Position numbers and translations under genes: made by a program | The notes under the pieces: model-generated | Told to the model about the DNA's origin: nothing | Database searches by the model: none | Seen by the model: only the letters and a program-made list of their open reading frames with translations | IMG/VR virus record: IMGVR_UViG_3300045988_058602 | Location: 90,765-154,764 of that record | DNA length: 64,000 bases | Source: a virus | Reading direction: 5' to 3' (one strand) | Shown: positions 2,782 through 63,444 of the stretch, in pieces | Position numbering within the stretch: the stretch's first letter is position 1 | How the letters are laid out: every line of letters begins with the position of its first letter

Positions 2782-3043
2782 TTTCTACAATTTTAAAACC
2801 GTTATTAATTAGATATTCTTCTGGAGCAAACTGTAATTCAAAGAACCTTCTTAGTGAATAATTCTTTTTCTTTACAGAAAGATTTTTCTTTTTTATAGTA
2901 ATCGGTTTACTAGAAGAAAAGTATTTCTCCTCCATTAGAGCCGCTCCCCAACTCCAAATTTGATAAATCGAACTACAATAGATAAACTTATCATGTGTAT
3001 ATACAATTTGCTTATCCTTCTCGTAAGTCTTCCGTAAGGTCAT
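2762..3043 (-). CDS. hypothetical protein (93 aa)
   Basis: Intact ORF. Confidence 0.3.
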   Translation of the reverse strand: MTLRKTYEKDKQIVYTHDKFIYCSSIYQIWSWGAALMEEKYFSSSKPITIKKKNLSVKKKNYSLRRFFELQFAPEEYLINNGFKIVENETGCD

Positions 3044-3485
3044 TGTAAAACACTTTAATAGTTTTGAAAATAAATGAATTTTTTCTTGAATTATAGCAAT
3101 CGTTCCAGCTTCTACTCTGATAATGAGTTAAAAGTTCAGAGGCTTTTACTCCTGTATAAACATTTTTGCAGAAGCTACTATCGTCCTCACAGTCACAAGA
3201 GTTTATTGTATACTCTCCTATACCTATGGCATAATGCCAATGACTACCTATTATTTCGCTAAATTTACCTCCAAGAAAATAATCTTCATAGATTATTACT
3301 TTGAATTTAAATTTATCTCTACTAAGTAGTCTAGCTAAACAATATGCTATATAACAACAGCCTCCAGCATTAATGTCATACTCTTCATCCAGAAACTTAC
3401 AAAGCTTATTAAGCCTCTCCGCTAGAATTTCCTGCACTTCCGGTGATTTCGAGTTTAATCTCTTTTTTTGCTTTTTTAAACTCAT
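3012..3485 (-). CDS. hypothetical protein (157 aa)
   Basis: Intact ORF. Confidence 0.45.
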   Translation of the reverse strand: MSLKKQKKRLNSKSPEVQEILAERLNKLCKFLDEEYDINAGGCCYIAYCLARLLSRDKFKFKVIIYEDYFLGGKFSEIIGSHWHYAIGIGEYTINSCDCEDDSSFCKNVYTGVKASELLTHYQSRSWNDCYNSRKNSFIFKTIKVFYNDLTEDLREG

Positions 3486-3708
3486 CTAAGTACTGACCTA
3501 AAGTTATAATTTCATCTTTTCCGAATTTCTTTCTAGTTGCGTAGTTTATACAACGTTCTACAGCAGCCTCTAGTGAATAGCCATAGCCTTCCACTTTAAA
3601 TTCTTTTCTCGGATTTTTCCCTCCAATATCATATAGCAGCTCCAAGTCGAAACGAGGAGAAGCATCATTGATAGGGGTTAGCCTATAAAAGGAGCCTTCA
3701 ATTATCAT
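3409..3708 (-). CDS. hypothetical protein (99 aa)
   Basis: Intact ORF; overlaps the next by 77 nt. Confidence 0.4.
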   Translation of the reverse strand: MIIEGSFYRLTPINDASPRFDLELLYDIGGKNPRKEFKVEGYGYSLEAAVERCINYATRKKFGKDEIITLGQYLDEFKKAKKEIKLEITGSAGNSSGEA

Positions 3709-4075
3709 TTTCTATTTCTTTAATAAGATTTTCGATGAAGTCTGCTCTGTTCTGTATAGCTTCATATAGTTCATCTAGACTTTCAGCAATATAGATAGCA
3801 CAATAAGTATATTGGTTTATACACGGGACACTAAACTTATTTACATTATCCTTGTTCCAAGAATATAAACACCCAGTGCAATCTGGGTCTCCAGTCTCAT
3901 AACCGCATTCGTTGCATAAATAGCAATTTCTAAGACTCCCAAATCCAGTTATCCTAGATAACGCCTCATGCCAGCAATCATCGTCCTCATGCGCATTGCT
4001 TTCAAGTTCCTCTCTTGTAATACTTCTATACTTTTTTACAAGACGTCTTGCAGCGTCTAAATTCTTTATTTGCAT
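3698..4075 (-). CDS. Cys-rich putative zinc-binding protein (125 aa)
   Basis: Several CxxC pairs (CYLCNECGYETGDPDCTGC). Confidence 0.45.
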   Translation of the reverse strand: MQIKNLDAARRLVKKYRSITREELESNAHEDDDCWHEALSRITGFGSLRNCYLCNECGYETGDPDCTGCLYSWNKDNVNKFSVPCINQYTYCAIYIAESLDELYEAIQNRADFIENLIKEIENDN

Positions 4076-4878
4076 ACATCTATTACTGTTAAGTTATTAT
4101 TACTAGGCTGATATTCATAATCACAGTATGAATTAGTTATCGTAACATGATCAAAATTGTTACACAACTTTTTCAAGCCTTCTATATTTACAGCATGGCA
4201 AACTATAATCTCGAATCTATAGTTAGGATACTTTTCTTTAAGAACTTTAAGTTCTCCAAGGAATGTTCCTCCAGCATCGCACAAATCATCAATGAATACA
4301 AACGTAGAATAGTAACAATTTACATTTCTACCTATAGAGAATTCCTTGATTTTTCCAGTTTCTAAGTCTCTTGTCTTATTGAACACTAAATGTCCCCATA
4401 CCTTAGAGTACTCCCTGTATCTCTGATACGCTCCAGCATCAGGGAATACAACATTAGATTGTTGTGGTATATAGCTTCCATAATTCAATTCTTGACACCA
4501 ACATCTAGAACCTAGAAGATTCTTTGCTCTGTTAGAGTGAGCCTCTAAAATACAGACTGAACGATAGTTCATTCCATTTAAGATATTGCACACAATTTTC
4601 AGAGAAAATGGACGGTTAAAATCCATTACCCTATCCATACGCATAGACATTAGATAGGTAATAAATAAGTCCCACTCAATTTCTTGTCTGTCTAGAATAT
4701 CGCCAACTTGAGCTAACAGAAACAATTCTTCGGCAGAAGTAATTCTACACATAACCTTTACCGAATCTTTCCTATCAAATTCGTCTGGAAAACTTATTTG
4801 AGGCTCTCCGTCAGGGAATGTAGTGAGGTTATACTTAATCTCACTTTCATCCCAATTAATTAAGTTTAATAATTTCAT
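4066..4878 (-). CDS. PRPP-binding phosphoribosyltransferase-fold protein, ribose-phosphate pyrophosphokinase (Prs)-like
   Basis: Type I PRTase PRPP loop FIDDLCDAGGTF; located next to a NAMPT-like gene. Confidence 0.55.
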   Translation of the reverse strand: MKLLNLINWDESEIKYNLTTFPDGEPQISFPDEFDRKDSVKVMCRITSAEELFLLAQVGDILDRQEIEWDLFITYLMSMRMDRVMDFNRPFSLKIVCNILNGMNYRSVCILEAHSNRAKNLLGSRCWCQELNYGSYIPQQSNVVFPDAGAYQRYREYSKVWGHLVFNKTRDLETGKIKEFSIGRNVNCYYSTFVFIDDLCDAGGTFLGELKVLKEKYPNYRFEIIVCHAVNIEGLKKLCNNFDHVTITNSYCDYEYQPSNNNLTVIDVCK

Positions 4879-5347
4879 CTACGACATATTTTAAGATTTC
4901 ATAACTTTCTTCTAAGCCCGCCCTATCGTCTAGTAGAATATTGTAATAAGGCTTTCTAGAGTTCGGAAATAGTCTACTGCTTGTAAAAGGAGGTATAATC
5001 ATATCATTAATAAGATTTCCTATCCTCATTTGGACACACTCTACTTGTTTCTCTATAATTTTATTTTCGTTTTCCTCTGTAGAAAGTAAAATCATTTCAA
5101 AACCTAACATAGTACAACGTCTCAGTAGATTAATAACACAACTATAATCTCCTCCAGTATTATGATAGTCGAAGATAGTGTTATCAAAGTCGAAAGCGAC
5201 TATTAGCTTTCCGTATTTCTTATACTCTTCTAATAGTCGCTTCTTACAAGCCTCTTTTCCAAATGGATGGTTAAAACTTTCTATAAAGTCCTTCATTAAT
5301 TCGCTGTCTAATTTCTTTAAGAGTGTACTCCTTTTTAAGGACGCCAT
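4856..5347 (-). CDS. HAD-superfamily hydrolase-like protein (163 aa)
   Basis: Motif I FDFDNTI (DxDxT). Confidence 0.45.
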   Translation of the reverse strand: MASLKRSTLLKKLDSELMKDFIESFNHPFGKEACKKRLLEEYKKYGKLIVAFDFDNTIFDYHNTGGDYSCVINLLRRCTMLGFEMILLSTEENENKIIEKQVECVQMRIGNLINDMIIPPFTSSRLFPNSRKPYYNILLDDRAGLEESYEILKYVVDEIIKLN

Positions 5348-6833
5348 CTTCGAACACAGTCTCTAAACAGCCTCCACTTTCTACCTCAGGAGTTACTTGG
5401 TCTTCAGCATAGTAAACGCCATTAACGTCCTGATAGACAGCAATTAGACCTTTAAGAGAATTTTTAGTTCCATCATCTGTTTTAGGATGTTTGAATATTT
5501 CTTTCAATTCTCCATTAACTACACAAGCAGTAGCTTTGATTGCAAAGCCTAGACTATCTCTACTTGCATACTGATATGAGAATGAACCAACACCAAGAAC
5601 AAGATTACAAGCTGCCATGTGGGCATTCTCAAGTCTCATATAGATTTGCTTTTGACGTTCTAAAGTAATAGAATCTCCATACAATAAGCCTATCTTAGTG
5701 CTTGGATAACGGTAGTCCTTGGAAGTAGTATTCCAACCGAAGATCTTACCAAGCATATAGTATGCTCCGTAATATTGACCTTCTGATACTTCTACGTATT
5801 CTGCATCGTCATTAAACGGAGCATAACAGCAGTAGTATTTACCTTCCCTTATTCTTGTATTGAAATGAGGATTAGTTCTCAGACCACAAATAATATCTAC
5901 CGGGTCTCCACTATCGGGACGAATAACTACACGACCGTCACGAGCCATAATGTCTTTCTTCAACTTAGGAAGGAAGTTTTCAACAACATTCCAGAAATCC
6001 CAAGTATCAGACACTATGGAAACAAACCCAGTAGGATATAACTCATTAATGAGACGTTTATATGTTCCTAACTCGTCCTCTTCTCCTCCTGCACACATTA
6101 CCGAATGTTCAGTAGCCGGAACAGTAGCAGCAATCAATTCACTATCAGAATTAGCTCCATAATATTCTTCAAGAGCTGCAATAGCAGGAATAGTTTCACT
6201 TCCTACAAATGAAGTCATATGAGCCATACCAGAAATAACAGACGCTTCCAAACCAGCCATTCCTCTCATAGAGAAGTCATGACACAAGAAATCCAGGTTT
6301 ACATCCTCCGGAAATCCAGTATGTACTGAGTGTCTTTTGAGTTCTTTCTTATAGAGTCTTGCTCTAGTGGCAGAGGTACAAGGCATCCACAAAGTACAAC
6401 TAATCAAAGTCTCTAGATAATTAGTTAACCAAAAGAACTCTGGTTTCGTATTAGTAATAGTCATCATAGGAACTCTAATAGGACATACTGAACCTTCCGG
6501 CAACGCTTTAATACGAATAGGGAGATATCCTAAATCATACAAAGCCTCAATATGTCTATATCCCACGGACTCAATTCCAACGAAGTTGTGGACTCTCCGA
6601 TAAAACATTTCTATAGCTTTCTCTTTAGGCAATACAAAGAAATTCTTATTAAATTCGTCGATCAAATACTTTTTAATTAAATATTGGATTCCGAATACTA
6701 CAGAACCTTCGGTAGCTTCTGGAAAGTACTTGTTACTTCTCGGAGTCCAGTTACTATAAACTTGTTCAGTACCTTCTGGGTACATCCTGTGATGGCCTAA
6801 TTTGTAACCATCTGTTGCATTAATTATTTCCAT
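5271..6833 (-). CDS. nadV: nicotinamide phosphoribosyltransferase (NAMPT/NadV-like)
   Basis: 520 aa; N-terminus ATDGYKLGHHRMYPEGTEQVYS matches the conserved NAMPT N-terminus ATDSYK..H...YP. Confidence 0.8.
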   Translation of the reverse strand: MEIINATDGYKLGHHRMYPEGTEQVYSNWTPRSNKYFPEATEGSVVFGIQYLIKKYLIDEFNKNFFVLPKEKAIEMFYRRVHNFVGIESVGYRHIEALYDLGYLPIRIKALPEGSVCPIRVPMMTITNTKPEFFWLTNYLETLISCTLWMPCTSATRARLYKKELKRHSVHTGFPEDVNLDFLCHDFSMRGMAGLEASVISGMAHMTSFVGSETIPAIAALEEYYGANSDSELIAATVPATEHSVMCAGGEEDELGTYKRLINELYPTGFVSIVSDTWDFWNVVENFLPKLKKDIMARDGRVVIRPDSGDPVDIICGLRTNPHFNTRIREGKYYCCYAPFNDDAEYVEVSEGQYYGAYYMLGKIFGWNTTSKDYRYPSTKIGLLYGDSITLERQKQIYMRLENAHMAACNLVLGVGSFSYQYASRDSLGFAIKATACVVNGELKEIFKHPKTDDGTKNSLKGLIAVYQDVNGVYYAEDQVTPEVESGGCLETVFEDGVLKKEYTLKEIRQRINEGLYRKF

Positions 6834-6846
6834 TCTAAAAATTATT

Positions 6847-7353
6847 TTAATAACTAATTGTTAATAAACTCTTCATGTTTTTACCGACAGCTAAGTTCTT
6901 AAAACATTGAGTAATAAACTCTTTTGTCTCTGGATGAATCGCTCTAGGAGCGCTAATATATTTAATCCACCAGTTGTATTCTCCTTGGAAACTATTTCCA
7001 TTATATACCTTACCAGCGGCTAAATAATCACACACTAACTCTAATGCGTATTCTCTAGGGATTTTCACTGGGACTCCACCAGAATCTAATTGAGTTACCC
7101 AATATTCATAATGATGTGGATTCCTTCCTCTATGATGTAAATAGGACCTAGAATAGCCCAGAATTTCTTTCTCCTTATTTAATGGAGATGTGTTATCATC
7201 GTAAAATTTAACAGAGCGAGAAAATTCATACCATCCGAACTTAGATAAATCGTGCAAAATGCCCTGCCTGTATAGTCCTAATTGGAAGCAATAGTATGCA
7301 ACCCAGAACTTATGCCTTAGTATCCTTCTTAGATGCTTTAATATCCGAATCAT
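6847..7353 (-). CDS. HD-domain-like protein (168 aa)
   Basis: HDLSKF motif followed by a His-rich cluster HHRGRNPHH. Confidence 0.4.
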   Translation of the reverse strand: MIRILKHLRRILRHKFWVAYYCFQLGLYRQGILHDLSKFGWYEFSRSVKFYDDNTSPLNKEKEILGYSRSYLHHRGRNPHHYEYWVTQLDSGGVPVKIPREYALELVCDYLAAGKVYNGNSFQGEYNWWIKYISAPRAIHPETKEFITQCFKNLAVGKNMKSLLTISY

Positions 7354-7642
7354 ATAACGAATCTCCTAGGAAGTTAAGAATAGGGACATCTACTGTATAG
7401 TCTTCATTGTACACTGCAAATGCGTATACTACCCACGATGCTAGTGAGACACCTAAACCAAGCGGAGGGATAATCAAACTAGCTACAACAATAATAATAG
7501 TCCATCTAGGGATTTTTATTCTTGTAGCTTTAGAAGTTAACCAATTTACCTGGTAGGTGTAGTACAGACAGTAATATAGAAGTGCATAAAGTATAAGCCC
7601 TATGCCGTCGCATATTAAATACACAAATTTAAGATCTTCCAT
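7310..7642 (-). CDS. membrane protein (110 aa)
   Basis: Multiple hydrophobic helices. Confidence 0.4.
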   Translation of the reverse strand: MEDLKFVYLICDGIGLILYALLYYCLYYTYQVNWLTSKATRIKIPRWTIIIVVASLIIPPLGLGVSLASWVVYAFAVYNEDYTVDVPILNFLGDSLYDSDIKASKKDTKA

Positions 7643-7962
7643 ATCTTCTTTATAATTTTAGTCAGAAAATTTCTACCTCTTAACGTATACTTGTGAGTAT
7701 ATCCGTCATTTCTGTTAGGATTCCACAGAGCATGGATTGCATAGTATATATAGCCTACCATATATAATACTATATTCAAGACAGGGACAAATCCCAGAAC
7801 TATAATCATTAATACTGCCCAGATTGGAACCTTAATGTCATACTCTTCGTCTATGTTAGCATAGTTGCTACTATACCCGGTCCAATAAACCGTAACATGA
7901 GTATCTTTTAAGATAAGCACCGTGACGATTATCATCACAGTGCATATTATTAAGTACATCAT
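7615..7962 (-). CDS. membrane protein (115 aa)
   Basis: Multiple hydrophobic helices. Confidence 0.4.
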   Translation of the reverse strand: MMYLIICTVMIIVTVLILKDTHVTVYWTGYSSNYANIDEEYDIKVPIWAVLMIIVLGFVPVLNIVLYMVGYIYYAIHALWNPNRNDGYTHKYTLRGRNFLTKIIKKIWKILNLCI

Positions 7963-7964
7963 AG

Positions 7965-8789
7965 TTATTTTCCAGCTACATCCTTAAATAAGGTAGGAAC
8001 AGTACCATAAGTAGGCAGTTTTCCATCCCACTTCTCCACAAAATTCTGTTGTACAATCAATGCAGATAAGGAAGCTGCAATCTTTCTGTTATACTCAGCT
8101 TCTGCGTCTCCCTTAATTTTCAGAGCCTGAGCTGCTCCCTCTGCTTGGGCTACAGCCTTTTTAGCATTAGCTTCTACAGATTTAACCTCATTTTCTATCT
8201 TAAGAGCATCCTGCACCGCTTTATTTTTAGCATCAATAGCATCTACTAGTGTCTTAGGATATTGGAGACCAGAAGTTAGCTGCTCAAGTTGGAAGTTTTC
8301 GGCAAGTAATTCTTTGCTTAATCTATCTTCTATAGATTTCTCAAACTCTTCTCTTTTGCTAACTAATTCATCAGTAGTATAATTATTAAGTTGTATACGG
8401 AATGCGTTTTTAACATAGTTATATAATGTAGTATTTACGACATCAAGTATATTGTCTTTTCTGTATTTCTTAAATACCTCAGGTGACTTTCCATCAACTA
8501 TCTTAAGAGATATAGTAGGGTCAACAGTAAATGACGAACCATCCTTAGCATTAATAGAAAAAGCCTCATAGTCCACAGTAAGCACATAGGTTGGGTACTC
8601 ATATACAGCTGTGGTAATTGGATTATACCAAACAGCCCCCGTGACCAATGAGATGTCATCTACTCCTTTACCATCACCGTAAAGATTTACCTTGATTCCT
8701 TCATGTCCAGCGTCTACCCGCTCGTAGCCACAACTTGACAAACCAAATACCAGAGTTAATACACACAGAAACTTAATTATTGTCTTCAT
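7965..8789 (-). CDS. SPFH (band 7 / prohibitin-like) domain lipoprotein
   Basis: Lipoprotein signal ending LSSCG, then an SPFH-like core followed by an Ala/Lys/Glu coiled coil. Confidence 0.55.
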   Translation of the reverse strand: MKTIIKFLCVLTLVFGLSSCGYERVDAGHEGIKVNLYGDGKGVDDISLVTGAVWYNPITTAVYEYPTYVLTVDYEAFSINAKDGSSFTVDPTISLKIVDGKSPEVFKKYRKDNILDVVNTTLYNYVKNAFRIQLNNYTTDELVSKREEFEKSIEDRLSKELLAENFQLEQLTSGLQYPKTLVDAIDAKNKAVQDALKIENEVKSVEANAKKAVAQAEGAAQALKIKGDAEAEYNRKIAASLSALIVQQNFVEKWDGKLPTYGTVPTLFKDVAGK

Positions 8790-8985
8790 CTTTTTTATTT
8801 TTAAAATGTTTTTTGAAATGTTTAATAGTCCTATAGACTAGACTAGGAATTGCTATAAATAATAACAATAGTCCTCCAAGGTTTGCAACCCATAGGGACT
8901 GAGATAATAACCACAGTCCCATATTATAGGCTACAAAAACTAATACTATGGCAATAAATGCCTTAATTAGGTTTTTCTCGACCAT
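8773..8985 (-). CDS. small membrane protein (70 aa)
   Basis: Two TM helices. Confidence 0.35.
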   Translation of the reverse strand: MVEKNLIKAFIAIVLVFVAYNMGLWLLSQSLWVANLGGLLLLFIAIPSLVYRTIKHFKKHFKNKKDEDNN

Positions 8986-9226
8986 AAAATAATATATTCT
9001 CTATTGCTTTTCTTATTATACCACAGTAGTACACTATCCTCCGCAATATCTACATAAGGATCATAGTAGATATATGCGATGAATAGTAAGCATATAATTA
9101 TAAACGCAATCATAAATTACCGAGTTTTTACAGAACCTGGTCTAGTGGTAGCAGCTTGAAAATCCTTCCCTTGCTTATCCCACCATGCTTGCTTTGATTT
9201 CAACCAAGCTACTCTCTTCTTGTACT

Positions 9227-10243
9227 TCATTGCTCAGAAACTATTACAATTCTGTTAAATTCATTATCTCCAAAATCAGTAGTAACTCCACACCCCTTCA
9301 CGGTAAGTTTGTCTTCCGGAGCACCATAGTTAACTAGAGCCTTCTTCATAGATTCCGCTCTAGCATTAGCTAATTTGTTGTTGAAGTCAATAGGTCCCTC
9401 TTCAGAAGCATATCCCTCTATAACATATGACTTACCACTATTTGCTATGTAAGCTGCTAATTCGGACACAGCAACATTAGAGGTAGCAGATATTTCAGAG
9501 GAGTTTTGTAGGAATTGGATTTTAGGAGTAAGTAATTCTACCTTAGTAATTTCTATGGTATCTACCTTAACTACCTCAACAGGTTTGCGAGCCATAAGTT
9601 CATTATTCTTCTCTCTCAATTCATTAATAGACGCATTTAAGCTTTCTATTTCCGAATCATCATAAAGTTTCATAACTGGGAAATTCCCTTTGCTCGACTT
9701 AAATCTGTAAGTAGCTCCTACATAAACATTGACTTCTTGGTTTAATGGAGTAGTTTTAGGAAGTAGCATATATTCTGGGGTTATATTTAACGCCCACGTA
9801 TCAGTAATGTTGAAATTACATCTTACTGCACCACGCGCAGATACGTTATTATAGACGTATCCATAGGTATGATACCAACCTGCTCCTATAATCAATACTG
9901 GTTCAAACAGACGTCTATTGCCTTCATAGCCACATACCAGATTACTAAGATTGGTAGTAACATTAGCCGTAAGGTTGTGTGAATCAAAGAATGTCTTATT
10001 TCCCTGATTCATACCCGCTACCATGTCTAATTCTAGGCCAAAGATGGGTGTAATTTCTTTACCTACAGCAATATTCACCAGAATATCATTAGGTTCAGCC
10101 CAACTTCTCTGATTGTCCCAGACTGTAGTTCCAACATTACCGGAAATATACCAATTGTCTTTCAAACTTCCGGTTTCTACAACTTGTGCGCTTGCAAACG
10201 CACACATTAAACACAAACAAATAATACTAAAAATTTTCTTCAT
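9227..10243 (-). CDS. OmpA-family outer-membrane protein
   Basis: Signal peptide, beta-barrel-like N-terminal domain, and an OmpA C-terminal motif SYVIEGYASEEGP...NNKLANARAESMKKAL. Confidence 0.7.
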   Translation of the reverse strand: MKKIFSIICLCLMCAFASAQVVETGSLKDNWYISGNVGTTVWDNQRSWAEPNDILVNIAVGKEITPIFGLELDMVAGMNQGNKTFFDSHNLTANVTTNLSNLVCGYEGNRRLFEPVLIIGAGWYHTYGYVYNNVSARGAVRCNFNITDTWALNITPEYMLLPKTTPLNQEVNVYVGATYRFKSSKGNFPVMKLYDDSEIESLNASINELREKNNELMARKPVEVVKVDTIEITKVELLTPKIQFLQNSSEISATSNVAVSELAAYIANSGKSYVIEGYASEEGPIDFNNKLANARAESMKKALVNYGAPEDKLTVKGCGVTTDFGDNEFNRIVIVSEQ

Positions 10244-26998: not shown

Positions 26999-28414
26999 TT
27001 AAAACACTAGAGGATTATAACTACCTCTACGATACAAAGAAGGTTTACTGTTAGGGTCTCTAACCCAGTAGTAGTTAATAACGTTATCGTCCCTAGTAAC
27101 CACAATCCCCAATTTCTTGTCAATAGAGATAACTTCATCCCCATGAAAATCGTCTCCTACTTTCAAGCTTGAGAACTTGACATATGAGGACACATAGTTA
27201 TAAGATAGATTGTGGAAGTTATGCTGACGATATTCATAATACTCGTTAAGAGCTTTTCTCTCCTCGGCTGTGCAGTTATCCTCATCTTTAACCATAGGCT
27301 TAGGCAAGGGATTGTTAAATCTTTCAACAGCTTTAGAGAACTCTTTTACAGAGAACTTGTTTTTGTCAGATGTAACTTCGTAGGAATATGCATATCCTCT
27401 AATGCAGGAGTATTCATACTCATTAGTTACCACATTGAAGAATCCTTTTGCTCTTCTTAAACCTTCAATTCCGTGAATGTTTACTTCATTAACTATTGTC
27501 TTAAGAATATCAATGGTAGATATAGTTAAAGAATCAATGAAGTCGAGCAAATCTTGACGTGCTTCTGGAACTTGTAGAACATCGTCTAAGTATTCATTCA
27601 CAATCTTCAGGTCGAGATTTCCAAACTCCTTGACATAACGAATGCGAGACGGGCGTCCAATCATGTTATCGTTAACGGTCATTTCGTTCGTAGTCAGCAA
27701 GAATACCTTGCGATAACCGGAATTATATACTCCATCCATAATTTGGAGAATAGTGGAGTCAGACTCATTGAAGTTCTTCTCAAACTCATCCAAGAATAGG
27801 ATACAGTCATTTTCGATACTTGAAAGAAATTCAATCATGCTTTGATTAGCATCTCCCATATCTTTTACTATGATGATAGGAAGGTTTAACTTGTTCGCCA
27901 ATTCCTTAGCTGTAACTGTCTTTCCAGTACCCTTCGTACCAGTCAGCATAATTCCCATGTTATCGGAAGTAGCATGATAAGTCTTAATTACGTGGTTAAT
28001 AAACTCCTCTTGCAAACCATACATTTTGTACGGGAATACAAACTTGTCGGTATGTCTTTCAAGATGAAAGCCGTTCCTAGTTAGGCAAATGTTGTAAATA
28101 CCTACTGGTAGAGTCTTCTCTACCTTGTAATCTGGGCTTACCTGACTGTAGATATTTCCAGAATACATCCAAACTTTGTTCATTTTTTCGTCTTCTAAAA
28201 TGTTATTTAATACAGATGCTTGTCTAATGCATCCAACTAATTGATTAGCTATTGATTCAATAGCTTCTTCGTCGTCTGTCTCCTTGGAGAGTCTCTCTAC
28301 GAACCACTTCTTGGAACGTTCAATCACTTGTTCATCAGTCTCACTTTCTTGAATAGTGTTTCCGAACTCATGATAAATACTAGTAAGCTTAGCTTCTAAT
28401 TCTTCCTGTGTCAT
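26999..28414 (-). CDS. AAA+ ATPase-domain protein (471 aa)
   Basis: Walker A GTKGTGKT and Walker B-like ILFLDEFE. Confidence 0.6.
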   Translation of the reverse strand: MTQEELEAKLTSIYHEFGNTIQESETDEQVIERSKKWFVERLSKETDDEEAIESIANQLVGCIRQASVLNNILEDEKMNKVWMYSGNIYSQVSPDYKVEKTLPVGIYNICLTRNGFHLERHTDKFVFPYKMYGLQEEFINHVIKTYHATSDNMGIMLTGTKGTGKTVTAKELANKLNLPIIIVKDMGDANQSMIEFLSSIENDCILFLDEFEKNFNESDSTILQIMDGVYNSGYRKVFLLTTNEMTVNDNMIGRPSRIRYVKEFGNLDLKIVNEYLDDVLQVPEARQDLLDFIDSLTISTIDILKTIVNEVNIHGIEGLRRAKGFFNVVTNEYEYSCIRGYAYSYEVTSDKNKFSVKEFSKAVERFNNPLPKPMVKDEDNCTAEERKALNEYYEYRQHNFHNLSYNYVSSYVKFSSLKVGDDFHGDEVISIDKKLGIVVTRDDNVINYYWVRDPNSKPSLYRRGSYNPLVF

Positions 28415-28680: not shown

Positions 28681-29181
28681 TTATAGTTCTATATTCTTTA
28701 TCTTAGGAGCTATATTAACCATTTCTCTATAATAATTACGTATTTTCTCAAATGCCTCATCAGGTATTATACTACAGTCAATTACTGATCTGTCATATAA
28801 CATATTACCAGGAAACCAGGCTATGTTTAGCATTCTCTGTTTAGAGTAAGTAATTCTGGTTTCTTTGGAGTCAATATAGACCTCATAGCAATCTTCGTTT
28901 ACCATACAAGAGTTGCCAAACTCTTTTGTTAGTTGGAAGTACATAAAAGAGTAATTATTGAAGTTAATTCTAAAACACTTCCCTACGTAGCTTTTAAACA
29001 GCTCTTCTCTTTTTTCCTCTTCCCTCCTTTTAGTATCTCTTCTTTCCTGTTCTTCTCTGTCTAGGTAATCACAATATTCCTGCAATGAACAGCCGGGATG
29101 CTTCTTAGCATATACTTTCATAGGATTTTCATTCCACATATCATACCATTTTAAGTTGCCCGTATACATCAAACCCTGCAA
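28681..29181 (-). CDS. hypothetical protein (166 aa)
   Basis: Intact ORF. Confidence 0.45.
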   Translation of the reverse strand: MQGLMYTGNLKWYDMWNENPMKVYAKKHPGCSLQEYCDYLDREEQERRDTKRREEEKREELFKSYVGKCFRINFNNYSFMYFQLTKEFGNSCMVNEDCYEVYIDSKETRITYSKQRMLNIAWFPGNMLYDRSVIDCSIIPDEAFEKIRNYYREMVNIAPKIKNIEL

Positions 29182-29563
29182 TAGGAATCCAGGTTACAAT
29201 ACTATTACTGTCTACTGGCTTTCCTCCCTTAATAGTGCAAACAGTAATATGAGGGTTGGCATTTGCACAAGGTAACTGTGGATCTCCAATAGTAACTCTG
29301 AAAGCTATAGCTTTATCAGAAAAGCCAATTCCGTCAATTGTTATACGATGCATTTCAAATGGGCCTCTTCTAATATATCCTCTTAAGGCTTCAAATATCT
29401 CTTCATCACCTTGACTACTATGAAGCAAGGTACAATGGTCTAGATACAGAGTACTCCCTCTTTGGAACACCAAATTAGATACAATAGGGTTATCAATGAT
29501 AACTCTCAAAAGTGCATTTCTATCTTTCTCAGAAAGAAATAATCCAAAATACTGATATTTCAT
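29141..29563 (-). CDS. 2H phosphoesterase superfamily protein (LigT / cyclic phosphodiesterase-like)
   Basis: Two H-x-T/S-x motifs: DHCTLLHS and NPHITVCT. Confidence 0.5.
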   Translation of the reverse strand: MKYQYFGLFLSEKDRNALLRVIIDNPIVSNLVFQRGSTLYLDHCTLLHSSQGDEEIFEALRGYIRRGPFEMHRITIDGIGFSDKAIAFRVTIGDPQLPCANANPHITVCTIKGGKPVDSNSIVTWIPIAGFDVYGQLKMV

Positions 29564-31084: not shown

Positions 31085-32893
31085 TTACTTCACTTCTTCA
31101 AACTCAGTTGTTTTGCTTTCAATCTGATTCTTTCCCAGTACACTCTTAACAGTGTCTGCGAAAGGAATCGAGCGAAGCAGGTCAAATGCAGGATTCAAAC
31201 TTTCAGCTGTTTTAGCCATGAAATTACCAGCGGTATTCTCGTTACCATAAACAGTAACCTGTCCAAGGTGAACGTGTTCAAACATCTGAGCAGATGCTTC
31301 TGCAATACCTGTCAACTGGTCAACTGTCTTGTACTGAACCACCATTTCAGGAGTCAAGCCAGATTCAATCATCTTCTGGACTGCCAGAGCAGGAGCCATT
31401 TCAATAGCCTGGACTTTATCAGCCTCAGCCATCAAAGATGCTCTCTTACCCTCAGCTTCAGCAAGCAGTTTCTTTCTTGTACCTTCAGCTTCGGCTTCTA
31501 GCTGCAACTTTGTAGCATTCGCTTTAGCTTCTGCTTCTTTCAGAATTTCAGCAGCCTTAGCTTCTGCTTCAAGTACAGCTTTCTGCTTAACAGCTTCTGC
31601 TTCAATCGTGATACGTTCCTTCTCCTTTTGAGCAGGAACAATCGTCTCAGCATGAAGCTTAGCTTCCATAGCCAATGCAGCTGCTTCGTTTACTTCCAGT
31701 TGCTTTTCTTGCTTAGTTTTCTCGATAGTCATTTGAGCTTCTACCTTAGAAGTTCCTGCTACCTTTTCAGCTTCAGCCTTAGCTTTCTCGGCCTCTCCCT
31801 TAGCTTTAGAGACTTCAATTGTGGCATTTTGTTCTGCCACTCCTGCAATCTTATCAGCTTCAGCTGCCTTTACACGCTTGTCTGACTCATACTTAGCAAC
31901 TGCAGCTTCCTGTTCGTTAATTGCCTTTTGCGTCTCAGCTTCCTGTTTTTGTTTAGCCTGAGCAATACGAGTTTGTTTCTCTGCTTCTGCTTCTGCTTTC
32001 TTAGAGTCAGCTTCTGCTTTAGCCTTAGCTACATTAGCCTCAGCCAGTGATTCAGACTCTGCTCTGTTAGAATCGGCTTCTGCTTGAGCTTTAGCTATAG
32101 CTGAAATTTTCTCAGCTTCTGCTTTAGCTTTCTCTGATTCCGCTGCAGTATTAGCTTTAGCAATATTGGCAGCTTGTTCAGCTTTCTGATTAGCAATACC
32201 TGATTGCTTATTCTTCTCAGCTTCTGCAAGTTTGATTTCCTTCTCCTGGTTAATCTCTGCCACACGAACCTCTTGCTCTTGTCTAGTCTGAGCAACAGTA
32301 GTTTCACGCTCTTTCTCAGCGTCTGCTACAGCAATTTCACGTTGCTTGTTGGTTTCTGCAATCTGAATATCTCCTTTCTTTTTCTCTTCTGCAATGTCAG
32401 CCTGTGCCTGAGCAAGAGCTTTAGTTGCAGCTTTCTGACCTAGATTCTTGATATAGTTTGCATCATCCGAAATATCGGCATTGTTAATGTTGATAATACT
32501 GAAACCTACCTTATTCAACTCGGTCTCAATATTCTCCTTAGCTTTGCCGATAAACTTGATTCTGTCAGCGTTAATTTCCTCAATCGTCATCGTAGCCATC
32601 AAGCTTCTCACTTCACCAATGAGAATATCCTTGATTTGGTCTGAGATTTCAGAAGTTTTAGCTGTTAAGAATCTACTTGCAGCATTTTGCATTAATGTTT
32701 GAGTAGTTCCGATACCAGTGGTCAATGTTACAGGAATAGTTACCTTAATCATTTGACTGGAAACACCAGTAACATTTACTTGAATTTGGATAGGTTTCAA
32801 GGACATTTTAGCCCAGTCTTGAATTACTGGCATTACGAATGTACCTCCACCATGAATGATTTTGGACGGCAGCATCAAATGGAATAATCCCAT
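31085..32893 (-). CDS. flotillin-like SPFH-domain protein with a long Ala/Glu/Lys coiled coil
   Basis: 602 aa with an N-terminal band-7-like core and about 300 aa of AEAEK-type repeats. Confidence 0.65.
   Translation of the reverse strand: MGLFHLMLPSKIIHGGGTFVMPVIQDWAKMSLKPIQIQVNVTGVSSQMIKVTIPVTLTTGIGTTQTLMQNAASRFLTAKTSEISDQIKDILIGEVRSLMATMTIEEINADRIKFIGKAKENIETELNKVGFSIININNADISDDANYIKNLGQKAATKALAQAQADIAEEKKKGDIQIAETNKQREIAVADAEKERETTVAQTRQEQEVRVAEINQEKEIKLAEAEKNKQSGIANQKAEQAANIAKANTAAESEKAKAEAEKISAIAKAQAEADSNRAESESLAEANVAKAKAEADSKKAEAEAEKQTRIAQAKQKQEAETQKAINEQEAAVAKYESDKRVKAAEADKIAGVAEQNATIEVSKAKGEAEKAKAEAEKVAGTSKVEAQMTIEKTKQEKQLEVNEAAALAMEAKLHAETIVPAQKEKERITIEAEAVKQKAVLEAEAKAAEILKEAEAKANATKLQLEAEAEGTRKKLLAEAEGKRASLMAEADKVQAIEMAPALAVQKMIESGLTPEMVVQYKTVDQLTGIAEASAQMFEHVHLGQVTVYGNENTAGNFMAKTAESLNPAFDLLRSIPFADTVKSVLGKNQIESKTTEFEEVK
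31440..32460 (-). repeat. intragenic degenerate tandem repeat (gcttctgcttcagc-like units) encoding the flotillin coiled coil
   Basis: Visible periodic GCTTCTGC/AGCTTT units on the plus strand. Confidence 0.5.
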
Positions 32894-47187: not shown

Positions 47188-48102
47188 ATGGACAAAAGTA
47201 AAATTACAAAACAAAATGGGAACATAGCTTTCGAGGAGGAGGCTCATATTTATTATGATGTTACAGAGCCTGAACAGAAATTTATATCTGTGACGACTTT
47301 AATACATTCTTTCACCCAACCCTTTGACAAAGAGTTCTGGTCAGCCTATAAAGCATTAGAGAAACTTCTGTCTAAAGAAGATTGGGCTATTGAGAAAAAG
47401 TCATTACTGAATACTAAGAAATTTGACAAAGTTCTACTTGAGCTTCATAACATTACAGAAGACGAGTTTAATAAGGAACAACAAGCTATCTTAGATGCGT
47501 GGGATTTAGAGAATAGGAACTCTTGCGAAAGAGGAACTAAGATTCATGCAGATTTAGAAAACTCTTTTTACAAAAAGAAGAAGAACATAGACCTTAGTAA
47601 ATATCAAATAGGTGGTAAGTTTGAGTGTGTAAAAGACCATAATGAATTAGATTTAGAGAATGGGGTATATCCTGAGTATTTAATATCTAGAGTATCGGAA
47701 GATGGAAAACTTAGAATAGCTGGACAAATCGACCTACTAGTTAAAAGAGGTAATAAGATAATTATAGGAGACTGGAAAACTAATAAGAAGATAGAAACCA
47801 AGAGTTTCTTTAATTCTAAAACCAAATCATCAGTTAAGATGAAATATCCTCTAAATAATTTAGATGATGTTAATTATTGGCATTATGCACTTCAATTAAG
47901 TACTTACGCCTGGATGATACAAAAAAAGAATCCGGAGTTTGAGATTGAAGATTTAGTATTAGTTCACTTTGATCATAGTGATAATATGACAGTATATCAT
48001 CTACCTTACCTAAAAGATGAAGTAATTAGAATGCTATTGTTTTATAAAAAAGAATCTGTACTAGCTGAAAACAAAAGAAAACGTCAACGTATTGAATATT
48101 AA
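47188..48102 (+). CDS. PD-(D/E)XK nuclease of the RecB/Cas4/YqaJ exonuclease family
   Basis: GQIDLLVKRG...IIGDWKTNKK (D...DWK) and QLSTYAWM (QxxxY) motifs. Confidence 0.6.
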   Translation: MDKSKITKQNGNIAFEEEAHIYYDVTEPEQKFISVTTLIHSFTQPFDKEFWSAYKALEKLLSKEDWAIEKKSLLNTKKFDKVLLELHNITEDEFNKEQQAILDAWDLENRNSCERGTKIHADLENSFYKKKKNIDLSKYQIGGKFECVKDHNELDLENGVYPEYLISRVSEDGKLRIAGQIDLLVKRGNKIIIGDWKTNKKIETKSFFNSKTKSSVKMKYPLNNLDDVNYWHYALQLSTYAWMIQKKNPEFEIEDLVLVHFDHSDNMTVYHLPYLKDEVIRMLLFYKKESVLAENKRKRQRIEY

Positions 48103-48104
48103 TT

Positions 48105-48320
48105 ATGACATTAGAAGAAATTGAAGAACGGTGGAAAATATGTAGACGATGTCCTATATGCGACCAAGATAATGGATTATGTAATGGAAATTTATATCTA
48201 AATCCAAAAAATAATGATATAAGTATAGGACCAAAAGAAGGTTATATAAAAGGATGCGGATGTCTACTAGAGAAGAAGATTCCAAACGAGAAAAAACATT
48301 GTCCTGCAGGGAAATGGTAA
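48105..48320 (+). CDS. Cys-rich zinc-finger protein (71 aa)
   Basis: CRRCPICDQDNGLCNG...CGC...HCP. Confidence 0.4.
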   Translation: MTLEEIEERWKICRRCPICDQDNGLCNGNLYLNPKNNDISIGPKEGYIKGCGCLLEKKIPNEKKHCPAGKW

Positions 48321-48637
48321 TGTACGGAACTCCCGTGCTGTATAGACCCGATAAGGCTTATGTACTTACTTATCAGGAAACAAAAGAAGAAAGTAGAGAA
48401 GATATGACAGAAAAATGGATTAAGGCAATATTTACTAAGCCTCTAACAATATTAAAGAGTATATATTTTAATATATTCGGAATAAATCAAGATTTAGCAA
48501 CCAAGAGATTAAAGATTTGTAATACTTGTCCTCACAAGTTATATACTTCTGTTGGAGAAGTATGTGAGGAATGTGGTTGTATATTAGAGAATAAAACTAG
48601 AATAGAAGATGAACATTGTGATTTATGTAAATGGTAA
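48254..48637 (+). CDS. Cys-rich zinc-finger protein (127 aa)
   Basis: CNTCPHK...CEECGC...HCDLC; overlaps the previous ORF in another frame. Confidence 0.4.
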   Translation: MRMSTREEDSKREKTLSCREMVMYGTPVLYRPDKAYVLTYQETKEESREDMTEKWIKAIFTKPLTILKSIYFNIFGINQDLATKRLKICNTCPHKLYTSVGEVCEECGCILENKTRIEDEHCDLCKW

Positions 48638-48645
48638 AATGAATT

Positions 48646-49371
48646 ATGGAAAATTTAAGAACAGAATTAAACAGTAACGAGAAACTAGCCTTATCTTTGA
48701 CCGGAATGGAAGGAACAGGAGAACACTTTATTTTAAATGGTGAAGCTGCAGATAAGACATTACTTAGAGAGAAACAAGAAAGATTTAATACAGCGGTAGA
48801 TGAAATAAAAGATAAATTCTCAAAACATAATAAAGCTTTAGAGGATTATGCTAATTCATTATCAGAAGATATGAATGGTGTAGAGATTATGCCTATGTAT
48901 GGGTATGCTCTTATCAAGCCGTTTGAACAGAACCCATTCCAAAAAATTAAGACTACTAAATCAGGATTAATTACAGACTTAGGAGGGTTTGCTCCAACAT
49001 ACAAGTCTAACGAGACTGGAGAAATTGAGGAAGAACAACAGTTTATCAAGGTAGGTACTGTAGTAGAGGTAGGCCACAAGTGTGAGTTCTTAAAGCCTGG
49101 TGATATTGTATTCTATACTATAGCTAGTGAATGTATGGTTCCATTTTACAAACTAGGATTCGTAGTAGTTAATGAGAATAGAATCATGGCTGTAGTTAAT
49201 GAGAAACTAACTGAAAGGAGAGACCAAATTAAGCAATCTCAAGACTGTATAAATGTAGATATAGATAAGATCCCAAAAGAGCTTGGAGATAGCTTACCTG
49301 AGAGAATAAAGAATTGGATGGAATACAAAAAGATAGGAATTAATTTACTTAGAGAGGATGGAAACAATTGA
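48646..49371 (+). CDS. hypothetical protein (241 aa)
   Basis: Intact standard-code ORF. Confidence 0.5.
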   Translation: MENLRTELNSNEKLALSLTGMEGTGEHFILNGEAADKTLLREKQERFNTAVDEIKDKFSKHNKALEDYANSLSEDMNGVEIMPMYGYALIKPFEQNPFQKIKTTKSGLITDLGGFAPTYKSNETGEIEEEQQFIKVGTVVEVGHKCEFLKPGDIVFYTIASECMVPFYKLGFVVVNENRIMAVVNEKLTERRDQIKQSQDCINVDIDKIPKELGDSLPERIKNWMEYKKIGINLLREDGNN

Positions 49372-49426
49372 TGAGAAAGTTTATTTCAAACCTGGGGATT
49401 GTGTTACTTTACGGTAGTGTAAGGTA

Positions 49427-49579
49427 ATGCATTCTCCAGTAATGCTTGTTCTGAGAAGGGAATCAGCATTATTTAAAGATAACCAGGGATTGCGCGGACT
49501 TAGATGTAGATGGTTTACTGATTCTGGACTGATGCAAGAAGCAGTATTTAATACAAAAGACTTAATTAAAGTAGAAGAA
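49427..49579 (+). CDS. small protein (50 aa)
   Basis: MHSPVMLVLRRESALF...; ends TAA 2 nt before the next ATG. Confidence 0.3.
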
Positions 49580-49581
49580 TA

Positions 49582-50796
49582 ATGGCGAAAATACAATTTG
49601 ATCCAGAGTTAATGTAGCATATCAAGACTATATATGGAGACGCAGAGTTAGACGGAAGAACTTTACAACAGTTGCATTAGACTTGGCAAAGTAATCCGAA
49701 CTCTATTAGAAATACTGCATAGTAGAAGAAAAGAAGTGCTGTGCCAGCTATACAACAAAAACCTATATTAGGATTAAAGCCGTCTACTCCTACTATTCCT
49801 AAGAAAATAAATGCACCTTAGCAACAAATTCAAAACGACGACTTAAGAGGAGTCTAGGGGTTTGGTACAGCATTTAGAGAAGCCAGAAAGAGAGGACTAA
49901 CTCAATTCAAATGGGGGAAAGGAGTGTATGGAACATAGTTAGCTAATGGAAAGAAAGCAACAGTAGAGGTAGGAACTCCAGTAATGAATAATCCCTATGT
50001 TACATATAGTCAAGACGGAAAAAGAGCTACTACGTACCAAAATCAAGTAGACTAGGAAACTGGAGAGCATACTGGAACTATCCAAGAACAATGGATAAAG
50101 CCGCCTACAACTAATATGTATGGGCAGAAACTAACTCCAGAATAGCTCAAAAATTAGAGAAGTTGGGAACATATACCAAAGGCAACTGCTAGATAGCAAC
50201 GAGTTAAATATCAACAAGGAGGAGCAATGGCTAATTAGGAAGAATTACAAAAAGCATTTATGGCATACTTAATACAGGATGCCGCAGCACAAGGAATACA
50301 ATTACAATCTGAGTAGGATTTAGAACAATATGCTCAGCAATTAGGAGAAGACGGAATTAAAGCCAAATACCAGGAATTTATGCAAAAAATGCAAGGTGGA
50401 GTTATGGCTAGATTAGGAGCTAAGCTTGAGTACTATAAAAAATTAAAAGGAGTTTGCCCAGAAGGGGAAGAACTTGTTTATTTTAAACAAGGAGGTAGAA
50501 TTTGTAAAGCCTGCCAGAAAGCTTAGAAAGGTGCTAAGGTAAAAGGTAACGAGGTAGACAAATTTAAGAAAGGAAGAGCACAGTATAAGAAAGATATGAA
50601 ATCAGCGAAAGATGAAGCTTCCAGAGATTCTATATCTATTAATAAATATAATGATTAGGAAACCATGTCTAATAAAGGACATAAAGGAAACTTCCAAAAG
50701 GGAAAATGGGTTCCTGATAGAAAGCAATATACTAAAAAGGATGCTTGTGGCTCTAAAATGAAAGTAAGCAAGTGTGGCTCTAAAATGAAGAAGTAA
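49582..50796 (+). CDS. late protein (404 aa), TAG-recoded, Gln-rich
   Basis: Single frame from ATG 49582 to TAA 50794 with about 20 in-frame TAGs and no TAA or TGA. Confidence 0.55.
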
Positions 50797-50829
50797 GAAA
50801 AGATTGTCGAATGTTAATGATTAATGATT

Positions 50830-51390
50830 ATGAATGTATTTAACTATAACACTTTAACTAAATAGTTAGAAATAAATGAACCAGAGATTCTTCTAGTTAA
50901 AGAGTTTAAAGCTTTACTGCAAAGAGATAAATCTGTGGAAAAGGATAGAGCAATTAGAGAACTATCATACATTTATTTAGCTATTGATTGGAAGAGTCCG
51001 TATAGCTAGTACTCTGAATATGAAAGGCACGATGAAGCAATTAATGATTCTGGATTAACAGAATCAGAATTTAATGATCCGATATTTAGGGAAGCATGTA
51101 GAAAATATAGAGCATTATAGGACTCAAATAAATCAATTAAATTATTAGAAGCTGCTAGAAGAGCTGCTGACTAGTTTATTGATTACTTCGATACTATTGT
51201 AGACTTAAATGAACGTGACACTAATGGAAAGCCAGTATTCTCTGCTGAGAAAGTAATGAAGGAAATGGCTAGCCTTCATAAAGTTCACGAAGAATTAATT
51301 ACATTAGAAGATGAGGTTAAAAAAGAACTTACTGAATAGTCTACCGTTAGAGGAGGGGCTACAGATGGTTTTGATCCTGGAGAATTTTAA
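50830..51390 (+). CDS. putative small terminase / DNA-packaging accessory protein (186 aa), TAG-recoded
   Basis: Frame ATG 50830 to TAA 51388 with 6 in-frame TAGs; the call rests on its position directly upstream of TerL. Confidence 0.4.
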
Positions 51391-51392
51391 TT

Positions 51393-53753: not shown

Positions 53754-54009
53754 GATTGAGGATTTGAATCCAGTTGGTTACAAAATATCTTTTAACTTTG
53801 ACAGGTCTGAGATGCCATTAGTAATCATAGCTGATTTACCCGATGATGAATTTCTGCCTTTTATTAAAGAAGAATTAAGAAGTAGGAAGTTATAGAGAGT
53901 TAAGTATTATAACGCCACTAAGCTTCCTCCAGAACAACATAATACATGTTATGAAAGAGAAAGAATTGATAGACAAAACAAACGAGGCTATTGCGGAACT
54001 TGTGTATGA
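53665..54009 (+). CDS. possible small overlapping ORF (114 aa) with 1 TAG
   Basis: Alternative frame overlapping the TerL 3' end and the portal 5' end; uncertain. Confidence 0.2.
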
Positions 54010-56125: not shown

Positions 56126-56126
56126 T

Positions 56127-56996
56127 ATGGCTACAGCAGGTACAATAGTATATAATAAAGATTAGCAACAAATATATCCCATTTCTCATGCAGAGGTGGT
56201 AATTAGTAATGCTTCTGGAAGTAAGTCAGATGTAGAAGACAACCTTGTAAAATTATGGAAAAAGGTCTCAGAACTAAGTGGGGACTCGGAAGCAGCTAGT
56301 AATATCATGGTAGTAGTTACTTATTGTAAAACAAATACCAAAGATGAATCCGAAGTAAAAAAGTTGTCAACATGGAGTGATATTTTTGAACTACCAGACT
56401 CAGAAAGACCGTATGTTTGGAAGAAAACTCTATACACGTATAAAGGAGACACTGCTAAACTTAATGAGATTTACGAAATTGTTGCTACAGATATTGCTGA
56501 GAAAATTCAGAATATCTATATTGCAAGATCAACTGGGGTTGCACCAGTTATTACTTATCCAATACTAAAGGATGGATATGGAGATCCTATATTAGACTCT
56601 GAAGGAAATACTTAGGAAGATTTGACTGCCTTTGACAATAAATTACCAGAAGGCTGGTCAGAAACTCCAGTTAGTATTGGTCCAGCTACTCCATATGTAT
56701 TTATATCAACACGTAAGAGAGTAGAAGGATTATGGAAAAGATATTCTGAACCAGCTCAATACGGTAGGTGGGCATTTGACAGTTAGTTAGAGTTACGATA
56801 TACCATTACTTCTGGAGATAAACCAGCTGTTAATACTACAAGTGACGATCCTGGAAGTTAGTGGTCTAGCGATACTCCAGATAATTTTACTGGAAAAATG
56901 TGGATGATTACTGCAACATCAGTAAACGGAGTATTGAATAGTGATGAAAATAACGTTAGATGGCACGGTCCTCATTTGATGTCAATTATACAATAA
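56127..56996 (+). CDS. structural protein (289 aa), TAG-recoded
   Basis: Frame includes the fragment 56196-56615 and has 4 in-frame TAGs; TAA stop overlaps the next ATG (TAATGG). Confidence 0.5.
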
Positions 56997-57727: not shown

Positions 57728-57882
57728 AAGAAAGGCTATTAAAAGGTATGAAGAGTTTCTTGGAAGAATTAAGAAAGGATATAGACCAGATTATCAAGAT
57801 ATTTTGAATTTAATCTGTTTTATTAATCTACCTGTAAAACTAGATAATCACGAATTTATTAAATAGCAACTATTAAATCATA

Positions 57883-61337: not shown

Positions 61338-61342
61338 ACAAG

Positions 61343-61552
61343 ATGGGAACAATTTATATTGACGGACAGTTTAAAAGCTCTGCTAAGCCTGTAAAAGTTG
61401 TTAGTGGTAGTGTAGGAGGGTCTGGAGTAGATCCTGATACTCTCAAGAACTATGCTACTAAAGCAGAACTTCAGAAAGCTGTTGAGGACTTAACTGCTTC
61501 CATAGAAGGAATAGATCATGATGTAGTTGAAGAAACTTTAATAATATAGTAA
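61343..61552 (+). CDS. small late protein (69 aa)
   Basis: The ORF-track fragment ends at TAG; the real stop is the TAA immediately after it. Confidence 0.4.
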
Positions 61553-61553
61553 T

Positions 61554-63374: not shown

Positions 63375-63444
63375 GATATAAAAATATAAAAAATCAGTTT
63401 AGATAATAAACTGTAGGATATTACTTCTAAAAACCGTTGATTGG

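Follow-up and report, generated by a model that had tools for sequence, protein, structure and literature searches.

A predicted NARP1 operon of an uncultured human-gut phage, probably extended by a HAD-family phosphatase that would feed the ADP-ribose supply

Depletion of NAD+ is among the commonest strategies by which bacteria counter phages. In the pathway established for the NARP1 family, which consists of the ADP-ribose (ADPR)-pyrophosphate synthetase Adps and the nicotinamide ADPR-transferase Namat (Osterman et al., 2024; bioRxiv 10.1101/2024.02.11.579819), host defence systems (SIR2, TIR, SEFIR and others) split NAD+ into ADPR and nicotinamide, Adps uses the beta,gamma-pyrophosphate of ATP to pyrophosphorylate ADPR at its 1'' position, which yields ADPR-pyrophosphate (ADPR-PP), and Namat converts ADPR-PP and nicotinamide to NAD+ and pyrophosphate (PPi); by homology, the same steps would apply to the proteins described here. 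A three-gene form, NARP1-AP, has the arrangement Adps-phosphatase-Namat, in which the phosphatase is the Macro-domain protein Adpp; this enzyme converts ADPR-1''-phosphate (ADPR-1''P), a product of RES-type NAD+ degraders that is useless to NARP1, to ADPR (Osterman et al., 2026; bioRxiv 10.64898/2026.01.28.702374). Here we describe a cassette on a stretch of 64,000 nucleotides of viral DNA (IMG/VR virus record IMGVR_UViG_3300045988_058602, positions 90,765 to 154,764; hereafter the window), in which a Nampt-like and a Prs-like gene flank a small gene of the HAD superfamily. As judged from its sequence, the core pair very probably represents the NARP1 NAD+-reconstitution pathway, and the locus as a whole is probably a NARP1 operon that includes, as an extension, a HAD-family phosphatase which would feed the ADPR supply. 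The phage is an uncultured one from the human gut, with a genome of about 190 kb. By itself the core is ordinary, being a further member of a known anti-defence pathway whose nearest relatives are already catalogued; the new part of the locus is the embedded HAD phosphatase.

The cassette occupies positions 4066-6833 of the window and consists of three minus-strand open reading frames (ORFs) that overlap head to tail. The first gene (5271..6833) encodes the Nampt-like protein of 520 aa, the predicted Namat, which starts with MEIINATDGYKLGHHRMYPEG; the middle gene (4856..5296, with the frame open to 5347) encodes a predicted capless (C0) HAD-superfamily phosphatase of 146 aa counted from M18, and the last gene (4066..4878) the PRPS-like protein of 270 aa, the predicted Adps. 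The true start of the middle gene is most likely M18 at 5296, because its homologues measure 142-146 aa, and with this start the overlaps amount to 26 nt between Namat and HAD and to 23 nt between HAD and Adps. The layout agrees with a first-pass annotation of the window, which had placed a NAMPT homologue and a Prs-like protein with a HAD-type hydrolase between them at 4066-6833, and the N-terminus quoted there for the Nampt-like protein matches the translation of ORF 6833..5271. A Namat homologue is located within 10 genes of Adps, namely two genes upstream, the ORFs overlapping. All three genes end with TAA and the cassette contains no in-frame TAG; dN/dS values of 0.03-0.25 relative to related phages indicate purifying selection on each of them. 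As in NARP1, both core genes are present and co-oriented, but here Namat comes first and Adps last, with the third gene wedged between them.

The core proteins share their two superfamilies, and also their automatic-annotation names, with housekeeping Prs (TIGR01251) and the salvage enzymes NadV/Nampt, and with NARP2 (Nampt plus Nmnat). In a classical salvage pathway, the Prs-like protein would make phosphoribosyl pyrophosphate (PRPP) starting with ribose-5-phosphate, the Nampt-like protein would combine PRPP with nicotinamide to form nicotinamide mononucleotide (NMN), the host would finish NAD+, and the HAD protein would be a generic sugar-phosphate or nucleotide phosphatase. The database names 'ribose-phosphate pyrophosphokinase' and 'nicotinamide phosphoribosyl transferase' are in line with this interpretation, but identical names proved wrong for the proteins of Bas63, SPbetaL1 and ICP1. 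The Prs-like protein matched phrog_619 (E 5e-53) and TIGR01251 (E 3e-16). The former was rejected as a discriminator between Adps and Prs, since E. coli Prs (193 bits) and the window protein (181 bits) did not separate, a result that salvage would also accommodate. The TIGR01251 model, which has a cut-off of 113 bits, returned 59 bits for the window protein, 84 for that of Megatron, 98 for ICP1 Adps and 423 for E. coli Prs; the window protein remained under the cut-off of every Prs model (TIGR01251, NF002320), as validated Adps do under TIGR01251. A small neighbour-joining tree of 26 sequences, distance-based and not by maximum likelihood, contained the validated Adps of Bas63, SPbetaL1 and ICP1 together with further Adps from phages and prophages and, as Prs representatives, five bacterial sequences and two archaeal ones of class III. 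In this tree all Adps including the window protein grouped apart from the class I Prs and from the archaeal class III Prs (98% bootstrap), and within this clade the window protein belonged to a Bacteroidota-phage subclade (100% support) with the SPbetaL1/Megatron group as its sister (73%). Clustering with housekeeping Prs, which the first-pass annotation had named as the outcome that would speak against NAD+ reconstitution, was not observed.

The residues identified as functionally important in the ICP1 Adps structure (PMC13586617) were largely recovered in the window protein (F18 as F21, R87 as R80, H121 as H114, D161 as D147, K185 as K168, D212/D213 as D197/D198, C215 as C200, D216 as D201 and F221 as F206). 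Among these are all acceptor residues (R87, H121, D161, D212 and D213 of ICP1) and the catalytic beta-hairpin lysine, K185 in ICP1 and K162 in SPbetaL1. The C-terminal alpha11-alpha12 module of Prs, comprising regulatory helices, is missing from the window protein (270 aa compared to 315 aa of E. coli Prs) and also from ICP1 Adps. Whether the window protein or ICP1 Adps served as the query, searches of GenBank phages retrieved essentially the same approximately 1,400 records. Tables S1 and S2 of the first NARP1 study list proteins of cr126_1, DAC15, Lak and Megatron, most of them marked as Namat-associated (bioRxiv 10.1101/2024.02.11.579819); the cr126_1 relative, which is 46% identical to the window protein, appears in Table S1 with this mark. 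These data strongly indicate that the Prs-like protein is an Adps of the validated clade and not a housekeeping Prs.

The Nampt-like protein matched the Pfam families NAPRTase (E 1e-32) and NAMPT_N (E 5e-10) as well as the NCBIfam model NF006629 (520 bits). Passing the latter would suit a salvage enzyme, but the model was discarded as a discriminator, as it accepts the window protein and validated Namat alike under the name 'nicotinate phosphoribosyltransferase'. The best match in the PDB was 9W5X/9W5W (502 bits, E 1e-149), the structures of SPbetaL1 Namat (PMC12774641), compared to 222 bits for mammalian and 202 bits for Xanthomonas bona fide Nampt. Namat differs from Nampt by a selectivity clamp, which consists of the SCH motif GS-X-phi-X-phi-X-phi-TRD, with an aromatic X stacking on the adenine of ADPR-PP, and of the SCL loop with an Arg, or with Lys/Tyr followed by a stacking residue (PMC12774641). 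The SCH of the window protein, GSFSYQYASRD (G416 to D426), fits the Namat consensus with Ser replacing Thr before RD, and F418 and Y422 align to F392 and Y396 of SPbetaL1. In the SCL, K35-Y36 aligned to R40-V41 of SPbetaL1, with K38-Y39 in ICP1 and K-W in Bas63, so that the alignment indicates a Bas63/ICP1-type variant. An adenine clamp of this kind, which is absent from Nampt, strongly suggests that the Nampt-like protein is a Namat. A 38-aa insertion (RTNPHFNTRIREGKYYCCYAPFNDDAEYVEVSEGQYY, residues 318-355, window 5780-5893 on the minus strand) directly follows the conserved DIICGL; it is common to this phage lineage, with partial likeness in locus L080, and is absent from the Namats of SPbetaL1, ICP1 and crAss-like phages.

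Several features weigh against assigning the core pair to NARP1. Of the Nampt-like catalytic core (F189, D215, R306), the window Namat keeps F187 and R305, but the position of the catalytic D215 is taken by E213. In addition, the adenine-stacking F92 of ICP1 Adps is M85 in the window protein, and the PP loop of the latter reads AGGT instead of GAAS and in this respect resembles the TGGT of Prs; SPbetaL1 Namat, moreover, still yields NMN from PRPP in vitro. The first two substitutions, together with the Namat insertion, distinguish the window lineage from described NARP1. The exchange at position 213 is conservative, and as E213 is fixed in the whole Bacteroidota-phage clade it represents a lineage trait rather than decay. 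A partner that would complete another pathway was not found: domains of Nmnat (NARP2), nucleotidyltransferase/NUDIX or NadR/PnuC (NARP3) did not occur among the 74 ORFs of window positions 1-49 kb. With the Prs cut-offs missed, the position in the Adps clade, the missing regulatory helices, the Namat clamp and no Nmnat partner, we regard classical salvage as very unlikely. The preference of the first-pass annotation for Adps/Namat-type NAD+ reconstitution is supported by the SCH motif, the closest match to a solved Namat and the Adps clade. It held that sequence alone could not part this pathway from NadV plus PRPP synthase; by means of clamp motifs, model scores and the tree, the two can be separated. 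It overlooked that the HAD gene recurs with NARP1, that NARP1-AP has a Macro-domain phosphatase at the equivalent operon position, and that the published NARP1 tables contain near relatives of the cassette.

For the middle gene, the assignment was obtained from motifs and fold. The protein matched phrog_1238 (E 5e-15), whose database name 'phosphoheptose isomerase' is misleading and is corrected by the HAD assignment; no Pfam or NCBIfam match was obtained for the window protein, and its relatives reached PF00702 only at E values of at least 0.003. Across 41 homologues, the invariant residues D36-x-D38-x-T40, a Ser/Thr after strand 2, K115 and D123-D124 are exactly the HAD phosphatase motifs I-IV, and the AF2 model was confident (pLDDT 92.9) and displayed a Rossmannoid HAD fold from which the cap domain is absent. 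Motifs and fold bear out the earlier call of a HAD-type hydrolase and, along with the genomic context, suggest a Mg2+-dependent aspartyl-phosphatase. The capless HAD architecture suits bulky substrates.

Structural matches of the model were HAD and Pnkp-phosphatase folds. The same capless Rossmannoid core with DxDxT and the K...DDR arrangement is found in the C-terminal domain of T4 polynucleotide kinase-phosphatase (Pnkp), the second-best structural match, and in BT_0820 (PDB 2OBB). Accordingly, the HAD protein might be a T4 Pnkp-like polynucleotide 3'-phosphatase for RNA or tRNA repair, whose position would merely reflect inherited synteny devoid of functional meaning. HAD relatives weakly match phrog_415 'polynucleotide kinase', and the window contains 27 tRNAs and a small ORF resembling 2H phosphoesterases, which would fit such a role. 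In contrast to T4 Pnkp, however, the window protein stands alone (146 aa) with a kinase domain neither attached nor adjacent, an additional helix at its N-terminus, in which R20 and Y25 are invariant, distinguishes it from both T4 Pnkp and BT_0820, and its context is NAD+ reconstitution instead of end-healing. The link to NARP1 described below holds over three gene orders and over phage families that otherwise have no common synteny, which inherited synteny does not explain. We therefore consider an RNA-repair function of the HAD protein highly improbable. The 2H-like ORF (29144-29563, minus strand, 140 aa) has two H-x-T motifs (HCTL at 43, HITV at 105) and is the probable source of a Pfam tRNA_lig_CPD match (2H cyclic phosphodiesterase, E 1e-7). 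It is located about 22 kb from the cassette and adjoins an AAA ATPase gene (27002-28414); its substrates might be RNA ends or an ADPR cyclic phosphate.

The HAD gene turned out to be a recurrent companion of NARP1 that was so far undescribed. It lies beside both Namat and Adps at 75 of 81 phage loci, i.e., at 73 of 79 loci from IMG/VR and at both GenBank examples (cr126_1 and Megatron), and at eight of nine loci of a genome collection, the ninth of which is truncated with Adps present. The genome-collection loci include one from an isolate of the Flavobacteriaceae, Tamlana haliotis (L097). Two of the six remaining IMG/VR loci are Lak-like with the order HAD>Adps only, three end at the contig edge directly after HAD, and the last is L079. 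Three gene orders occurred, Namat>HAD>Adps, Adps>HAD>Namat (L074, L080, L081) and Adps>Namat>HAD (Megatron, L098), and the carriers include the group of approximately 190-kb gut phages, the Crassvirales, the Lak megaphages and the Bacillus Herelleviridae. Among the approximately 1,400 GenBank phage records carrying Adps, 82 contain the HAD gene; 54 of these are from Bacillus phages, compared to 84 Bacillus records with Adps. In the crAss-like phage cr85_1, Namat directly abuts Adps with no HAD gene, which indicates that the slot is fixed and its occupation by the HAD gene optional. In the full texts and supplements covered, to which most subscription journals do not belong, no paper was found that ties a HAD protein to NARP1.

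Some observations concern joined or additional genes. For Bacillus phage Crookii (KU847400, 151914-153791), a single tblastn alignment covers Namat and HAD, and a few database proteins (among P0115, P0050, P0057 and P0061) unite the HAD region with a NAMPT_N or AAA domain. Genuine gene fusions may underlie these cases, or else errors of gene calling. A fused Namat+HAD query, which was tried as a count of the pair, retrieved 86 records at a coverage of at least 80%, compared to 82 with HAD alone. This count was not relied on, because 15 of the HAD records are Lak phages with a distant Namat. Similarly, DUF5662 was rejected as a general fourth gene of NARP1. Its position next to Namat is confined to this phage lineage, in addition to one case between HAD and Adps (L072); the cassettes of crAss-like, Lak and Bacillus phages lack it, it occurs in the absence of NARP1 (L089), and only 10 phage records contain it.

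In the proposed mechanism, the HAD protein would strip the phosphate from a phosphorylated ADPR that Adps cannot use, and would in this way widen or protect the ADPR supply. Our first preference among the candidate substrates is ADPR-1''P originating from RES-type (aRES) NAD+ degraders, which would make the HAD protein a non-homologous analogue of Adpp. A second candidate would be the ADPR-1'',2''-cyclic phosphate, into which the labile ADPR-PP breaks down spontaneously, or its monoester; the cyclic phosphate accumulates from ADPR-PP breakdown, and HAD phosphatases of the T4 Pnkp type are said, by Das and Shuman, to heal cyclic phosphates. The third would be 2'-phospho-ADPR, formed when NADases cleave NADP+. 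In terms of chemistry, the cyclic phosphate and 2'-phospho-ADPR appear to fit equally well as ADPR-1''P.

A comparison with NARP1-AP bears on this role. In both systems the operon has three genes, one of which is small and of the phosphatase type and either separates the two NARP1 genes or adjoins them; L074, L080 and L081 even share the order Adps>phosphatase>Namat. The phyla that host HAD-carrying phages also appear as aRES carriers, as the aRES table includes Bacteroidetes with B. thetaiotaomicron and Prevotella, and also B. cereus (bioRxiv 10.64898/2026.01.28.702374). In contrast, the accessory protein of the window is a predicted HAD aspartyl-phosphatase of the DxDxT type and not of the Macro/Poa1p fold, with no detectable homology and another mechanism; based on sequence comparison, the cassette is not NARP1-AP as defined, and the HAD protein would at most be a functional analogue. 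Adpp-like Macro domains were found neither in the 81 HAD-carrying phage loci nor in the window by tblastn and HMM searches with four Adpp sequences, no Macro Pfam match occurred among the 74 window ORFs, and a word search of the published Macro-neighbour list yielded no phages of Bacteroides, Prevotella or B. cereus and no Lak, cr126 or Megatron phages. The presence of the HAD gene in the phosphatase slot of NARP1-AP, along with the absence of Macro, favours an ADPR-derived substrate, and a non-homologous Adpp analogue would be the simplest reading. On balance, fold, motifs and genomic context incline us to the view that the HAD protein acts on an ADPR-derived phosphoester and thereby feeds NARP1; that it acts specifically on ADPR-1''P is a tentative proposal which we hold to be rather doubtful.

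The proposed role in ADPR supply also has to face a number of contrary points. The substrate is inferred throughout this HAD family from fold, motifs and genomic context, the window protein has no Pfam match, and against solved HAD proteins its sequence gave no significant match (E 0.14). The nearest characterised structural relatives are T4 Pnkp, which acts on nucleic-acid 3' ends, and BT_0820, the function of which is unknown. With respect to the genomic linkage, L079 carries the HAD gene, but NARP1 genes could not be detected within 6 kb of it, and the loci are not independent, as most IMG/VR loci stem from one metagenome project and are close relatives of this phage. In Lak phages the HAD gene is next to Adps with a Namat homologue about 220 kb away, as seen in MK250025 (HAD 416136-416543, Adps 416630-417439, Namat-like 192881-194374; see also L076 and L077), indicating that there the HAD gene tracks Adps and not Namat. 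Finally, the mutual exclusivity of Macro and HAD derives from word searches of a supplementary table and from a small local HMM, not from a full census.

Provided that the NARP1 core is assigned correctly, the substrate of the HAD protein might be no ADPR derivative at all, and the protein would support or accompany the pathway otherwise. It could hydrolyze PPi and so pull the Namat reaction forward, it could adjust pools as a phosphatase on NADP+ or nucleotides, or it could dephosphorylate a nucleotide alarm, for instance m6dAMP, which triggers the NAD+-cleaving system Metis. Inorganic pyrophosphatase, however, is already abundant in cells, and Metis yields AMP and NMN from NAD+, which are unusable by NARP1, so that an anti-Metis pairing is not obviously useful. 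As the occupied NARP1-AP slot and the absence of Macro also point to an ADPR-derived substrate, we judge a substrate outside the ADPR derivatives to be improbable, if worth retaining. Unlikely, too, is the notion that, with the HAD protein as its first member, there is a second class of NARP1-associated phosphatases, not homologous to the first, which prefers another phospho-ADPR (e.g., the 2''/3''-phosphate, the cyclic phosphate or 2'-phospho-ADPR) over ADPR-1''P. If true, the hosts (Bacteroidales and the Bacillus cereus group) would use an undescribed NAD(P)+-degrading defence chemistry, or the phages would repair unstable ADPR-PP.

The only GenBank relative of the window is the fragment MT836666 with 84% nucleotide identity. 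Contigs from IMG/VR and from metagenome-assembled genomes with cassettes 98-100% identical to that of the window measure 185-193 kb, and one of them was binned as Bacteroides sp. Within the cassette, divergence between the window and L007-L053 is mosaic: Namat remains 90-97% identical, and HAD (66-92%) and Adps (66-83%) vary independently of each other (e.g., HAD 73% and Adps 66% in L010, HAD 66% and Adps 81% in L025). The independent divergence of HAD and Adps suggests that alleles are shuffled by recombination inside the operon. A promoter and terminator scan of positions 3000-9500 was uninformative with counts near background, Bacteroidota promoters being outside its coverage; the same scan gave no minus-strand terminator-like sites inside the cassette, which is weak evidence. 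Near the cassette, two SPFH/Band-7 proteins (7965-8789 and 31085-32893) and an outer-membrane protein that resembles OmpA and has a beta-barrel domain (9227-10243) are encoded, all on the minus strand, and in the crAss-like cr126_1 a Band-7 gene likewise follows the cassette.

At 44696-64000, a plus-strand block of late genes is TAG-recoded, as the standard code gives tiny ORFs and reading through TAG gives products of 408-792 aa. It contains the genes for the terminase large subunit (51375-53753, plus strand, E 8e-63, 16 in-frame TAGs) and the portal protein (53879-56125, plus strand, E 2e-47, 28 in-frame TAGs), both with TAG read as Gln, and is headed by a suppressor tRNA with the anticodon CTA (44696-44768, plus strand). 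A tRNA with the anticodon TTA (41439-41509, minus strand) lies upstream of the block, and the tRNAs as a whole are distributed from 13.9 to 44.8 kb of the window. TAG recoding of late genes is known in gut phages. The position of the cassette in the standard-code block, its TAA stops and the lack of in-frame TAG would fit early expression.

So far, every accessory gene of NARP1 has uncovered a new layer of the conflict between phage and host: the Macro protein Adpp led to aRES and ADPR-1''P, and RyDEP revealed that cyclic ADPR signals are cleaved. A candidate for the next layer is the HAD phosphatase, which may either have evolved by convergence to act on ADPR-1''P or point to another product of NAD+ breakdown.

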